Below are positions 9,456-14,933 of a stretch of DNA of 34,813 nucleotides, one piece after another; the first letter of the stretch is position 1, and the number at the start of each line of letters is the position of its first letter. Position numbers and translations under genes: made by a program. The stretch is from an uncultured Ignavibacteriales bacterium. GTDB taxonomy: Bacteria > Zixibacteria > MSB-5A5 > GN15 > FEB-12. The notes below the pieces were generated by a model. It searched no databases. It was not told the DNA's origin and was given only the letters and a program-made list of their open reading frames with translations. The stretch covers positions 12,268-47,080 of the forward strand of contig CAZXRO010000001.1 in assembly GCA_964642435.1 (NCBI GenBank), read 5' to 3'.

Positions 9456-11567
9456 TTATGGGTTCTGGGGCCGTGAGTACTGCTGCATGGTCTGCTGGAA
9501 GAGTTGATTGGCGTAGGTTGCCTTGAAGCGGTTGACCTCGGTGCCGCGCTGATAGAACATGCCCGATTGCTGAAGCAAGCTCTGGTTCTGGGTCATGAGG
9601 GCGACAATCTGCATGGTTCGACCGGTCTGTATCTGGATGTAGTAGTCGGTCGGAAAGCGTTCGGCCAGAGCGATCATATGGTTGATTCCCTGCTGAAATC
9701 GGTTGGCTGCGAACAGGAGTTCGCCATAGAGAATACCGATTGCCTTGGAGTCCGGGTGCTGGTTATACAACGGTTCCAGGATGGCCATGGCGCTGTCGAG
9801 TTGTTTGGCGTGGTAATGCCGGACGGCGCGCTCATAAGCGGTCAATTCGTACTGGTCGGCCTGAGCGTTGCCGGTTTTTTCGGCAATTCGGATGATGTTG
9901 ACATCGTAATCGCGAATGTGATAGGTGGCGATTACCGGGGCTTGGGCCAGATGCGGATAGTCGTTGACGGCCAGTTGCCAGTTGGAGTTGTCAACCGCGA
10001 GGTGGGTGATCGGGTAACGCTCGAAGAGTGTGGAATCGACTTGGGCCACGCCGAACAGGTGGATAAACGCTTTGAGGTCGGTTTCCAGCACAAGCCCGGC
10101 GGCGTAGGGACCGGAGAGGACCGAGGCGGGGCCAATGATATTGGGCAGGTCGCGGCTGGCCTCGATAGTGTTGAGATTTTGGGTCATGAAGTGGGTGCGA
10201 CGGATACGGGCTGTATTGGTGACAGCGGACAGCAGCAGCAGCGCGGCCAGGGCGATCATGAAGGCTCGTGGCGGGACCGCCGGTTGTTTCTGGTTGACGA
10301 TTATGTGCAGTGCCCATACGGCGGCTATCGCTATCGGCAACGAGACCCAGACGACCGTGTTTGCGGGCGAGGGAAGCGTGTTGAAGAAGACCAGATTCAT
10401 GATCATGTGGAAGGCGAGCAGCCAGAAGGCCAGGCCGAGCACGATTCGCTCGGGCCAGCCGAGAACGGGCACCGGGCGGTGTTTGGTGTTGATCAGCAGG
10501 TGGTCGAACAGGGTGAAGGCCAGCGCAGCGATCATCGGCAGCATGAACAGTGTATACCGGATCGGTGAGTAGTTGAGGGGCATCAGCCCGAGAAAGATGA
10601 ATGCGGTGACAAACAGGGCCAGCCGGCTGGAGCGAGTGAGATTCGGCACGGAGCGCAGGCCGCGAGGGAGCAGAGTCAGCATAGCCAGTGAGGCTACGAG
10701 CATGGCGAAGGTATCGGGGTTCAGGTAGAACAGGCGGTTGTCGAAGCCATAGGAGATCAGGTGTTGCACGAAGCCCCAGGGCGAGCTGAGTCCCTCGGGG
10801 AAGCCGCGCAGGCCGTAGGATTGCTCACCCACATAGCCAAAGGCGGCGGTGAGATTGGTGCCATAGAGCGCGAAGGCCAGCGCCAACATGGCGATAACGA
10901 AGGAACCGCCGGCAATGAGAGTTTGCCGGACACGGGGACCTGATTTACCGAGCAGGATAGCGGCCAGGAGGCCGGGCAGCAATAACGCGCCGAAGAGCTT
11001 GCCCGTGAGCATGGCAATAGCGACCAAGACGCCGGAGAGGATAATACCCCAGGGGCGATCGCCCCACCAGCTATAGACCCAGAAGAGCAGTCCGGTGATC
11101 AACAGCAGGCCGTTTTCCAGGTACGACAGGCGGCCATAGGTATAGAGGGTGACACCAATCACGAAAGTGAACATGAGCGCGGCGCTGGTCCAGGCCCGGT
11201 GCTGACGAATGAGGCCGAGAGCGAAGAAGAAGGCACCGGCCAGGGTAAGCAGCAGACCGACCATATTGGACTGGCGCATATTGACTTTGGTAATCGCGAA
11301 CCAGGCCTGAGCAACGTATGAGGTCAGCGAGTGCTCATAGACAGTCCATCGTTGGTAATCAAACGGCGTGGGATCATCGAAGAGTTGGGCGTTGCGGGCA
11401 TGGTAGGTGTACTGGGCGGGATCAGTAGAGAGCGACTGGCCGAGCCCGGAGAAGTACATGGGCGGATCATAGGTTAGTCCCTGCTGCCAGAAAATGGCCC
11501 CGCCGATCAGGATGAGCATGGCCAGAGCGAAGAACACGGTGTTGTTGGTGCGAATGAAGCGTGGCAT
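9456..11567 (-). CDS. Polytopic membrane protein, GT-C-fold (PMT_2/ArnT-like) glycosyltransferase candidate with C-terminal TPR-like region
   Basis: At least 10 hydrophobic helices. The first periplasmic loop, STDPAQYTYHARN, resembles the GT-C DxxxY/R loop. The soluble C-terminal ~200 aa contains TPR-like helices (YERAVRHYHAKQLDSAMAILEPLY...). The ATG lies 3 nt after the selD stop. Confidence 0.65.
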   Translation of the reverse strand: MPRFIRTNNTVFFALAMLILIGGAIFWQQGLTYDPPMYFSGLGQSLSTDPAQYTYHARNAQLFDDPTPFDYQRWTVYEHSLTSYVAQAWFAITKVNMRQSNMVGLLLTLAGAFFFALGLIRQHRAWTSAALMFTFVIGVTLYTYGRLSYLENGLLLITGLLFWVYSWWGDRPWGIILSGVLVAIAMLTGKLFGALLLPGLLAAILLGKSGPRVRQTLIAGGSFVIAMLALAFALYGTNLTAAFGYVGEQSYGLRGFPEGLSSPWGFVQHLISYGFDNRLFYLNPDTFAMLVASLAMLTLLPRGLRSVPNLTRSSRLALFVTAFIFLGLMPLNYSPIRYTLFMLPMIAALAFTLFDHLLINTKHRPVPVLGWPERIVLGLAFWLLAFHMIMNLVFFNTLPSPANTVVWVSLPIAIAAVWALHIIVNQKQPAVPPRAFMIALAALLLLSAVTNTARIRRTHFMTQNLNTIEASRDLPNIIGPASVLSGPYAAGLVLETDLKAFIHLFGVAQVDSTLFERYPITHLAVDNSNWQLAVNDYPHLAQAPVIATYHIRDYDVNIIRIAEKTGNAQADQYELTAYERAVRHYHAKQLDSAMAILEPLYNQHPDSKAIGILYGELLFAANRFQQGINHMIALAERFPTDYYIQIQTGRTMQIVALMTQNQSLLQQSGMFYQRGTEVNRFKATYANQLFQQTMQQYSRPQNP

Positions 11568-11570
11568 GGT

Positions 11571-12626
11571 TTAGTCCACCATGACGACAATATCCACGCG
11601 TTCGAGAACCTCGCCGATTTGCACGGCTGGCAGCGAACGCGAGTTACAGGCGCTGATGAAGGAATCGGCCTGGTCAGCCGGCAGGGCGATGAGCAGGCCG
11701 CCGGAGGTCTGGGGGTCATAGAGGACCTTGTCGAGGTTGGGGTGGACGGAGTCGGCAACGCGGATGCGGCCGGTCATGAAATCGCGGTTGGCGTTGGCGC
11801 CGCCGGGGATCATGCCCAGCTCGGCCAGTTCCAGTGCATGCGGCAACAGTGGCAATGAGGCGGAGTCGATACGCACGGTAACACGTGAGCCCTCGGCCAT
11901 CTCATAGGCGTGTCCGGCCAGACCGTAGCCGGTGATATCGGTAGCGGCGTGGGCGTTGTGTTCGAGCATGAGTTCGGCAGCATCCTGGTTGAGCTGCGCC
12001 ATCTGGCGTGTGACCAGATTTTCGAGGTCAGCCTCTACCCTGCCCCGCTTAATGCCGGTAGTGATCAGGCCAGTACCGAGTGGCTTGGTGAGAAACAGGC
12101 GATCGCCCGGTTTGGCGCCGGAGTTGGTTACAATCTTGGCCGGGTGGATCACACCGGTGACGGCGACGCCGTACTTCAGCTCGCTGTCTTTGATAGAGTG
12201 ACCGCCGACGATTACGGCGCCGGATTCGATAATCTTATCCTGGCCGCCGCGGAGAATTTCCGTGAAGACGGAGTCTGCCATTTTGCCGGCGGGGAAGCCA
12301 ATAATATTGAGGGCCGTGATTGGCCTGCCGCCCATAGCGTAGACATCCGAGAGGGCATTGGCAGCGGCGATTTGTCCGAACCAGTAGGGGTCATCGACGA
12401 TCGGCGGAAAGAAATCGACTGTCTGTACCAGTGCGAGGTCATCGGAAATGCGATAGACGCCGGCATCATCGGCAGTATTTATCCCGACCAGCAGACTTTG
12501 GTGGCTGGGAACGGGCAGCGATGAAAGTGCCTGGGCCAAGAACTTTGGCGCAAGTTTGGAGGCTCACCCGGCGCAGCTCACCTCGGCGGTGAGCTTAATA
12601 GTGGCCTGTTTTCTCAGATCGTCCAT
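11571..12626 (-). CDS. selD: Selenide, water dikinase SelD, selenocysteine-containing (in-frame TGA at 12566..12564)
   Basis: The body matches SelD (LLVGINTADDAGVY...VDFFPPIVDDPYWFGQIAAANALSDVYAMGG). The tracked ORF starts at TTG 12539 and lacks the catalytic N-loop. Reading in frame from ATG 12626 gives MDDLRKQATIKLTAEVSCAG-U-ASKLAPKFLAQAL. The TGA aligns with E. coli Cys17 and Lys sits at +3, as in GAGCGCK. Confidence 0.88.
12529..12563 (-). promoter_or_regulatory. Candidate bacterial SECIS hairpin immediately 3' of the selD UGA
   Basis: mRNA GCCUCCAAACUU-GCGCCA-AAGU(UC)UUGG(CCC)AGGC forms roughly 12 bp with two 3'-side bulges and a 6-nt apical loop, starting at the codon after UGA. Folded by eye only. 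Confidence 0.45.
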
Positions 12627-12679
12627 GCGGCCAAGGTAAGCAAAAGCTCAGTGCAGTGCAACTGCTTGTATGTGGTCTC

Positions 12680-12708
12680 TTTACGATGGCAAGGCAAATG
12701 CGTATAAT
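12680..12708 (+). promoter_or_regulatory. Candidate sigma70-type promoter for the Cys-rich gene
   Basis: TTTACG (12680-12685), 17-nt spacer, TATAAT (12703-12708). Confidence 0.5.
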
Positions 12709-12715
12709 AGGATAG

Positions 12716-12732
12716 ACATTCATACTGAATGT
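12716..12732. promoter_or_regulatory. Perfect inverted repeat ACATTCA-tac-TGAATGT just downstream of the -10 (candidate operator)
   Basis: 7-bp arms with a 3-nt spacer, read directly from the sequence, positioned around the expected transcription start. Confidence 0.3.
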
Positions 12733-12763
12733 TGTTTGGTACCTTCCCGAGTGAGGATGCAAC

Positions 12764-13075
12764 ATGGCTGACGATGGATTACTGTGCTGGAATTGTGGCA
12801 AGCCGACCGGAATTGTCGATCGCGTGATGCGGAGTGATTCGTGTCCGAATTGCCTGGCTGATTTGCGGTGTTGTCGTGGGTGTCGTTTCTTTGACCCGTT
12901 TGCGCCACGACAGTGTCGGGAGCATATTGACCGACCGGTCCATCCCAAGGACAAGGCCAATTTGTGCGATTTCTTCCAGATGCGCCTGGCGGTGAAGGGT
13001 CCCGGCGGATTGCGCGGAGGAGGAGACAGCAAGGACGAGCGCAAGAAGCGTTTCGATGATCTATTTGAGGATTAG
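12764..13075 (+). CDS. Small cysteine-rich (zinc-ribbon-like) protein, function unknown
   Basis: 103 aa with CWNC...CPNC...CCRGC...C..H...C, followed by a Gly/charged tail. Divergent from selD. Confidence 0.6.
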   Translation: MADDGLLCWNCGKPTGIVDRVMRSDSCPNCLADLRCCRGCRFFDPFAPRQCREHIDRPVHPKDKANLCDFFQMRLAVKGPGGLRGGGDSKDERKKRFDDLFED

Positions 13076-13125: not shown

Positions 13126-14067
13126 CTACTTCAGGCCGAGCACCCACACGAATCCCAGCCACTGTAACCGCGAGTATTCCCAGCCGACGATTCCCACGAG
13201 TTTCTTGCGAACCATGCCGGCGACAATCGGTCCGTGGGCGGGATCATCGTATTCGAGAGAAAGCTCAGGTTCGGGGAAATTGAGCGTGTCCGGGGCGGGG
13301 CTGACGGTGCCCACCTCGCGGGCGTGATCCCTGAGCGTGATGAAGCTCTCGCCGGTGGTATCGAAAATCATGAAGAAGATGACGGTATCGCCATCGATAT
13401 CATAGAGAGTGCTGTAGGCTTCATCGAGTCCCTGGATATCCAGAAAGTCTCGCGGGTGATAGTGAGTGGAGCTGAGGATACGGTCCCTGTCGGGGAACAT
13501 CTTGATGAAGATGGGCAGCGGGTCGGTGTCCTCGATGTTGGCTTCGATTTCGCGGGCGAGGATGGACTGAGCGCCGAGGTCGTCGGCTTGCCGGGTTTCT
13601 GAGGAGATGGTGACGACGCAGTGATCTTTGATGAACCAGGTATGTGGTCCCTCGGCCCAGGAATCCTTGCCCAGACCAACCGGTGGTGAGGCGAGTGGTC
13701 GCTGGTGGGCGAAATAGCCGTAGGCATCGGGCACGGTAGCGAACTGGCTGATCTCGCTTGAGAGCGTATCATCCTCGACGGTATACGTCGCGCGCGTCTG
13801 GCCGACGAAGCTGTAATATCGCAGGATCTTCAGGCTATGGTCGAGCGCGGTATCTTTGGCTGTTTCTCTCGCGGTGACGGTCTTGAGCGGGTCAAGGCGT
13901 TTTAGTTCGTAGGTAGGGTTATCATCGGGCAGATACTGATCTGCGAAGTATGGCGTCTCGACCGGGGGTGGCAGTTGGTCGGCGTTATCGGTTTTTGGGG
14001 TGTCATCGGAACAGGCACTCAGCAGTGCCAGTGTAAGAAGCACAGGTAGTGGATAGAGTCGTTTCAT
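13126..14067 (-). CDS. Lipoprotein of unknown function
   Basis: MKRLYPLPVLLTLALLSAC has a signal peptide and lipobox. The ATG overlaps the stop of the upstream UbiA-family gene (ATGA). The longer 444-aa tracked ORF is an artefactual 5' extension through that gene. Confidence 0.75.
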   Translation of the reverse strand: MKRLYPLPVLLTLALLSACSDDTPKTDNADQLPPPVETPYFADQYLPDDNPTYELKRLDPLKTVTARETAKDTALDHSLKILRYYSFVGQTRATYTVEDDTLSSEISQFATVPDAYGYFAHQRPLASPPVGLGKDSWAEGPHTWFIKDHCVVTISSETRQADDLGAQSILAREIEANIEDTDPLPIFIKMFPDRDRILSSTHYHPRDFLDIQGLDEAYSTLYDIDGDTVIFFMIFDTTGESFITLRDHAREVGTVSPAPDTLNFPEPELSLEYDDPAHGPIVAGMVRKKLVGIVGWEYSRLQWLGFVWVLGLK

Positions 14068-14933
14068 AGTATATACAACACGATTACAACGGTTAGCAGC
14101 CACAGGCTGACATCGAGGAGGATGGGGCGATCGGTAATGAGCACGCGGGTAGGCGAGCCGCCTTTTTCCTCCTTGTGGATGAGATATAAGTAACGAAAGA
14201 TACCATAGAGAACGAACGGGATAGTAATGAACAGGTAGTCGGTGTTGAGCTTTTCGCGGACTTCGGCGGAGAAGGTATAGAGCATATAGACGACTACGAC
14301 GGAGGCGGTCACAATCCCGATGAGTTGGTCGAGCAGGTATGGGGAGTATTTGGAGAGAATGGTGCGGTGGGACGCGGCACCGTCGATATAAACCAGCTCG
14401 TGGCGGCGTTTTCCGAATCCGAGGAAGAGGGCCAGGAGCATAGTATTGATAATGAGCCATTTTGAGGCGGGGACCTCGATGGCCACGGCTCCGGCATAGG
14501 CTCGCAGGACGAAGCCGATGGCGATTGTCATGACATCGAGAATGACGATGTTCTTCAGTGAGAAGCTGTAGAGTACGTTCAGGGCAACGTAGGCAACGGC
14601 GAGATACAGCAGTGACCAGTTTATGAAGAAGGCCACGGCGAAGCCGACCCCCCAGAGAAGGAGAATCATCGCTATCGCGGTAGTTGGCGAGACCGTTTTG
14701 GCGGCGAGGGGGCGGTTTTTTTTGATGGGGTGAAGGCGATCGCGTCTTCGGTCAATCAGATCATTGAAGGTATAGACGCCGCTGGAGACAAGGCAGAAGA
14801 CGGCTACGGCGGCGAAGGCGACCCCGACCATCCGGACATGGGCCAGTTCCCCGGCGAAGACGAGAGCGGCCAAGACGACACCGTTCTTGAGCCAGTGGGT
14901 TGGTCGGGCCAGTTTTAGGATCGCGCGAAGCAT
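14064..14933 (-). CDS. UbiA-family prenyltransferase, decaprenyl-phosphate phosphoribosyltransferase (DPPR synthase)-like
   Basis: ARPTHWLKNGVVLAALVF, the Asp-rich motif NDLIDRRRDRLHPIKKNRPLA, about 8 TM helices and a second motif region KRRHEL. The pattern matches the Rv3806c-like subfamily as recalled. Confidence 0.85.
   Translation of the reverse strand: MLRAILKLARPTHWLKNGVVLAALVFAGELAHVRMVGVAFAAVAVFCLVSSGVYTFNDLIDRRRDRLHPIKKNRPLAAKTVSPTTAIAMILLLWGVGFAVAFFINWSLLYLAVAYVALNVLYSFSLKNIVILDVMTIAIGFVLRAYAGAVAIEVPASKWLIINTMLLALFLGFGKRRHELVYIDGAASHRTILSKYSPYLLDQLIGIVTASVVVVYMLYTFSAEVREKLNTDYLFITIPFVLYGIFRYLYLIHKEEKGGSPTRVLITDRPILLDVSLWLLTVVIVLYIL

Follow-up and report, generated by a model that had tools for sequence, protein, structure and literature searches.

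Our analysis indicates that the selD gene of this window, a 34,813-nucleotide stretch (C1:12268-47080) of a draft genome assembled from a metagenome (3.23 Mb, 489 contigs, 95% complete), almost certainly encodes a selenide,water dikinase (selenophosphate synthetase) that is itself a selenoprotein, with selenocysteine (Sec) predicted from sequence at residue 21. On the minus strand, the frame starts at ATG 12626..12624 and ends at TAA 11573..11571, and the sole in-frame stop inside it is TGA 12566..12564, at codon 21. The read-through product of 351 amino acids reads MDDLRKQATIKLTAEVSCAG-U-ASKLAPKFLAQAL..., with EVSCAG-U-ASKL around the UGA. Under translation table 11, the open reading frame (ORF) list shows only a 322-amino-acid ORF from TTG 12539, which is an artefact of UGA being treated as a stop. 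An earlier note on this DNA had placed the ATG at 12626, the TGA at 12566..12564 and the TTG at 12539 and had given EVSCAG-U-ASKL across the UGA; re-reading the minus strand returned the same coordinates, and translating the read-through frame returned the same residues. The features of the locus are as follows.

11571..12626, minus strand: full-length selD coding sequence, 351 codons plus TAA stop, with one UGA read through
12564..12566, minus strand: UGA of the predicted Sec21, the catalytic selenocysteine, equivalent to E. coli Cys17
12555..12557, minus strand: Lys24 codon, equivalent to E. coli Lys20, which completes the UxxK motif
12550..12534, minus strand: conserved bacterial SECIS hairpin, beginning 13-14 nt after the UGA, with comparative support
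12530..12554, minus strand: extended hairpin, whose lower stem (CUUG 12554-12551 with CAGG 12533-12530) is genus-specific
12537..12539, minus strand: TTG, the false start of the tracked 322-amino-acid ORF, inside the 3' arm of the SECIS stem

The extended 351-residue protein scores above the cut-offs of the SelD families against which the earlier note had proposed to align it. TIGR00476 (NCBIfam selD) gives 387.9 bits, the cut-off being 125. The match spans residues 11-319; it begins upstream of the UGA and so includes the N-terminal loop. NF002098 (NCBIfam) gives 343.7 bits against a cut-off of 299. Pfam finds the AIR-synthase-related N- and C-terminal domains of the PurM-like fold, AIRS (PF00586, 95.3 bits) and AIRS_C (PF02769, 78.2 bits). 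UxxK is the motif given for TIGR00476, an experimentally verified selenoprotein family, in a recent review (PMC13188914). The best match among solved structures is E. coli SelD (PDB 3u0o, E = 1.3e-70), aligned almost end to end, with query residues 8-340 against chain residues 4-334. In the segment IKLTAEVSCAGUASKLAPKFL, U21 falls on Cys17 and K24 on Lys20, so that U21-A-S-K24 stands against C17-G-C-K20, and the 20 codons 5' of the TGA align to the N-terminal loop. The loop therefore has a Sec or Cys with Lys at +3 (UxxK/CxxK), and the alignment bears out the previous placement of the UGA at the Cys17 position. Both proteins possess the two AIRS domains, N- and C-terminal, as well as the loop Lys, whereas E. 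coli SelD, in which UGC specifies Cys17 (GAGCGCK), requires neither recoding nor a SECIS.

In comparison with Sec-containing bacterial SelD proteins (TIGR00476, UxxK), such as that of Aquifex aeolicus, the present gene belongs to the same family and has Sec at the same position of the glycine-rich N-loop, Lys at +3 and, likewise, a SECIS within the coding sequence directly after the UGA. It differs in its uncultured FCB-group host, its N-loop (SCAG-U-ASKL) and an unusually small hairpin. Haemophilus influenzae SelD is another Sec-containing form, and the crystallised A. aeolicus SelD (chain 2yye), which we take to be a Sec-to-Cys variant, aligns as SSGCAAK against SCAGUASK of the present protein.

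The UGA is widely conserved in the order. A six-frame SelD search of 40 genomes of the same order yielded 39 orthologues, down to 53% identity, and 38 of these have exactly one in-frame TGA; the copy of one genome, G022, has none. We inspected the UGA column in 30 retrieved loci, comprising 29 Sec-form loci and that of G022. All 29 Sec-form loci carry the TGA in the same column, between KLTAEVSCAG and ASKL, with all three bases invariant. The G022 orthologue (L033) reads SCAGCAAKL, with TGT (Cys) at the column, and thus forms a Sec/Cys pair with the others. The closest SelD loci of other phyla come mostly from Desulfobacterota. In 75 of these closest loci, TGA lies between G and ASKL, three Brevibacillus loci have TGC in GGCGCK at the UGA column, and five further loci were not scorable. 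Orthologues at this column show Sec (TGA) or Cys, and never a frameshift or an unrelated stop.

Among the genomes sampled in the order, a change of selD from Sec to Cys (TGT) is seen in G022 alone; its downstream hairpin is lost too, and the residues encoded there are AANAL versus APKFL. Separately, two genomes of the order contain second SelD-like copies (G014:C1:1517094-1518110 and G020:C20:19339-20340) that are 47-50% identical, have no stop and sit in long open frames of 750 amino acids (G014) and 553 amino acids (G020). These are probably Cys-type SelD fusion proteins present beside the Sec form.

A second line of evidence comes from a small conserved hairpin downstream of the UGA. We aligned the Sec-form orthologues without gaps from -6 to +39 around the UGA, and RNAalifold, unaided, returned a 7-bp stem at columns 23-39. 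Compensatory changes are seen at four of the seven pairs, namely 23/39 (GC/CG/AU), 24/38 (GC/CG/UA/AU), 28/34 (AU/GC) and 29/33 (AU/CG/GC), and the loop positions G30 and U32 are invariant. An 11-pair version of the hairpin, with poor conservation of its four outer pairs, has a covariation score of 0.304. None of 500 shuffles attained this score (their mean is 0.164), and controls with a slid register score 0.045-0.121. In the 75 TGA-carrying loci from other phyla, a hairpin occupies the same register, with CCAGG-GGA-CCUGG in the Sec forms of Desulfobacterota. The Cys-form orthologue L033 has no hairpin at the equivalent site.

In the present copy, the SECIS is weak, with only five contiguous pairs (GCCAA 12549-12545 with UUGGC 12539-12535, closing the loop AGUUC 12544-12540). 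Two column pairs that are paired in most relatives are mismatched here: 23/39 as C.C (12550/12534) and 29/33 as A.C (12544/12540). The lower stem of the extended hairpin also occurs in L016 and L018, and in part in L017; in other genera, its column pairs 21/41 and 22/40 mostly do not pair. The earlier note had described an imperfect hairpin of about 12 bp starting at the codon after the UGA. A hairpin does lie downstream, but its conserved part is shorter and starts 13-14 nt on, and the outer part of the proposed stem is not conserved outside the genus. The single-sequence fold of 12575..12505 has an energy of -19.1 kcal/mol, no better than shuffled sequences (z = 0.06); it is thus covariation, and not stability, that supports the SECIS. 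A search of 12300-12800 against Rfam, with E up to 10, gave no match. In E. coli fdhF, the minimal upper stem-loop of the SECIS lies about 11 nt after the UGA, and a G and a U of the apical loop contact SelB. The present element resembles it in being a stem-loop within the coding sequence, here 13-14 nt after the UGA, and in its invariant apical G and U, but its stem is shorter (5-7 bp, with a loop of 3-5 nt), it has no evident bulged U and it has no Rfam match.

The genome also contains the genes needed to decode UGA as Sec. As the earlier note had expected of an organism with a Sec-containing SelD, all three of selA, selB and selC (tRNA-Sec) were found, the first two being adjacent, with selB directly after selA.

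C82:6636-7967: selA, 517.1 bits, cut-off 268
C82:8007-9866: selB, 329 bits, cut-off 242, covering 1-576 of 581 profile positions
C259:3398-3490: tRNA-Sec, 67.9 bits, gathering score 47; called by ARAGORN as tRNA-SeC, anticodon TCA (UCA)

No selU/ybbB was found in the genome, and therefore selenophosphate is used here to make Sec. The only Fdh-alpha-like match in the genome ends at a contig edge before the Sec region.

The earlier note had further suggested that other ORFs of this genome are cut at UGA, and this suggestion holds for at least four more genes. We scanned the genome de novo for TGA codons flanked on either side by coding sequence. The scan picked up selD and returned 250 raw candidates, the majority of which are probably neighbouring genes in a common frame. 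Ten candidates were translated through the TGA and six were run against Pfam. In the read-through translations of four genes, the family domains span the TGA.

C193:474-1013, minus strand: AhpD-like, CHYU82; TIGR01926 at 125 bits versus 81.8; 8-bp hairpin with loop GUU after the UGA
C220:4245-4718, plus strand: AhpC/TSA peroxiredoxin, FYLKDNTPGU55; 106 bits
C233:3628-3960, minus strand: IscA/HesB_Se-like, GYGU35GG; below cut-off
C9:22828-23640, minus strand: DUF1573 / OS_HP2 (seleno)protein, PGU70GC; the domain spans the TGA

About 25 orthologues across the order retain the TGA of the DUF1573 gene, and Cys paralogues without a stop also occur. AhpD-like, peroxiredoxin, HesB-like and DUF1573 proteins are all catalogued selenoprotein families (PMC9312934, PMC13188914). 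A further candidate on C309 (DUF362) has no Pfam domain spanning the TGA.

A fifth candidate is a gene at C131:3860-5146 on the plus strand (L129). Its product is secreted and tail-fibre-like, carries a Peptidase_S74 chaperone domain at the C terminus and has the motif CVTU240G. An 8-bp hairpin with a GGU loop lies 10 nt after its UGA, and both TGA and hairpin are kept in the orthologue (L130) of a genome of the same genus (G001). A homologue in G026 (L131), 50% identical, has TGT (CESC) and no hairpin. A keyword search did not find this protein in the 2026 selenoprotein catalogue and review, and it may represent a selenoprotein family not yet catalogued.

Other explanations of the selD frame have to be weighed against these data. 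One is that the UGA is decoded as a standard amino acid, either under a reassigned code (Trp or Gly) or by near-cognate read-through. The frame would be equally open under such codes, and the inserted residue is not readable from sequence alone. We nevertheless consider this very unlikely. TGA ends 760 of the 1642 long ORFs in the genome and is its commonest ordinary stop; therefore, the genetic code is not reassigned, and stop-codon usage rules out that variant. Moreover, the Sec machinery of the genome is complete and intact, the UGA column alternates with Cys only, the covarying hairpin follows the UGA in TGA forms only, and the other TGA-interrupted genes have their UGA at known redox Cys positions.

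Still less probable is that the TGA is a true stop, so that translation from TTG 12539 yields a truncated SelD and the 20 upstream codons are an untranslated leader or a short peptide. The 322-amino-acid ORF is indeed open under table 11 and TGA is the genome's most frequent stop, but several observations argue against such a product. As the earlier note had pointed out, the tracked ORF lacks the glycine-rich N-terminal loop; the alignment to E. coli SelD agrees, leaving the truncated form without the catalytic Sec/Cys and Lys loop. The upstream codons match the selD HMM from position 1 onward and are under the same third-position-biased purifying selection as those downstream. In the 29 Sec-form sequences, mean entropy at the three codon positions is 0.37/0.20/1.22 for the 12 codons that precede the TGA and 0.48/0.39/1.12 for the 12 that follow it, and pairwise upstream codon differences comprise 2218 synonymous against 620 non-synonymous changes. 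Since this variation falls mostly at third codon positions, the upstream segment is translated in the same frame as the rest. Finally, all 29 Sec-form orthologues have the TGA in a single column, at which the thirtieth orthologue has Cys, and TTG 12539 lies inside the conserved hairpin.

Although the genome is a metagenome draft in 489 contigs, a TGC or TGT misread in sequencing or assembly, or else a recent pseudogene, is the least probable explanation of all, given the same codon in 38 independently assembled genomes of the order and in 75 loci of other phyla. The three alternatives together retain only a very small probability, and the proposal of the earlier note that selD is read through its UGA as Sec is supported by the selenocysteine genes, the alignment of the upstream codons and the codons of the orthologues.

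With selD read as a Sec-encoding gene, a mechanism can be proposed by analogy with established bacterial Sec decoding (PMC13188914, PMC4561486). Translation would start at ATG 12626, and SelB, with GTP and Sec-tRNA(Sec), would bind the stem-loop 12550..12534, so that Sec would be inserted at UGA 12566..12564 as residue 21. Sec21 would then act in the flexible N-terminal loop (SCAG-U-ASK), taking the role of E. coli Cys17 beside the ATP-binding Lys24. The protein is predicted from its sequence to catalyse the conversion of ATP and selenide to selenophosphate, AMP and Pi. The selenophosphate would serve SelA, which would turn Ser-tRNA(Sec) into Sec-tRNA(Sec), and SelD synthesis would thus depend on SelD's own product.

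In this respect, a six-frame search found no second SelD in the genome, and so no Cys-type backup; therefore, synthesis of SelD depends on pre-existing SelD activity. This self-dependent arrangement appears to be fixed across an entire order of uncultured bacteria. Any regulatory effects of the dependence are something we infer. It is tempting to speculate that synthesis of SelD is a deliberately inefficient, selenium-gated step, acting as a positive-feedback and possibly bistable on/off switch for the selenoproteome, because the genus has no Cys-type selD backup and its SECIS is degraded relative to those of relatives, although we regard this reading as doubtful. The two mismatches of the SECIS in the present genus are partly offset by the genus-specific lower stem.

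The nearest named relatives of this organism are metagenome-assembled genomes labelled Candidatus Zixiibacteriota or "uncultured Ignavibacteriales". We found no paper describing Sec use specifically in this lineage, and the literature retrieved on Zixibacteria and selenocysteine consists of passing mentions. Our results correct the annotation of selD, which has 351 amino acids with Sec21 and not 322, and indicate that a Zixibacteria-related lineage uses selenocysteine, so that gene callers that stop at UGA truncate or split several redox genes, at least four more in this genome. Selenoprotein genes are usually misannotated, UGA being normally read as a stop (PMC4561486). The understanding of Sec decoding itself is unchanged, as the position of Sec, the motif and the placement of the SECIS are all canonical. 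SelD is among the most widespread bacterial selenoprotein families, and its Sec-containing form, which the earlier note had mentioned as known from other bacteria, is already well documented (PMC4561486, PMC13188914); roughly 19% of the SelD genes of prokaryotes have a Sec codon, invariably at the same position as here (PMC4561486).

The surroundings of selD in the window also deserve comment. Immediately downstream, starting 3 nt after the selD stop, lies a gene that is probably co-transcribed with selD and that directly adjoins it in at least 15 of the 29 relatives' loci.

9456..11567, minus strand: 703-amino-acid membrane protein with C-terminal TPR repeats (Pfam TPR_19)

On the other side and divergent from selD, an ORF of 103 amino acids at 12764..13075 on the plus strand encodes 11 Cys residues (CWNC, CPNC, CCRGC). 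It is kept near selD in five relatives at 54-90% identity and has no Pfam or NCBIfam match. The 149-amino-acid minus-strand ORF that overlaps it (12595..13044) is less well conserved and probably spurious. Further along, two long minus-strand ORFs of the DUF6599 (13126..14460) and UbiA prenyltransferase (14064..14933) families share about 400 nt of sequence. For the DUF6599 ORF, the start has probably been called too far upstream, because its first approximately 110 residues are of low complexity and not conserved.
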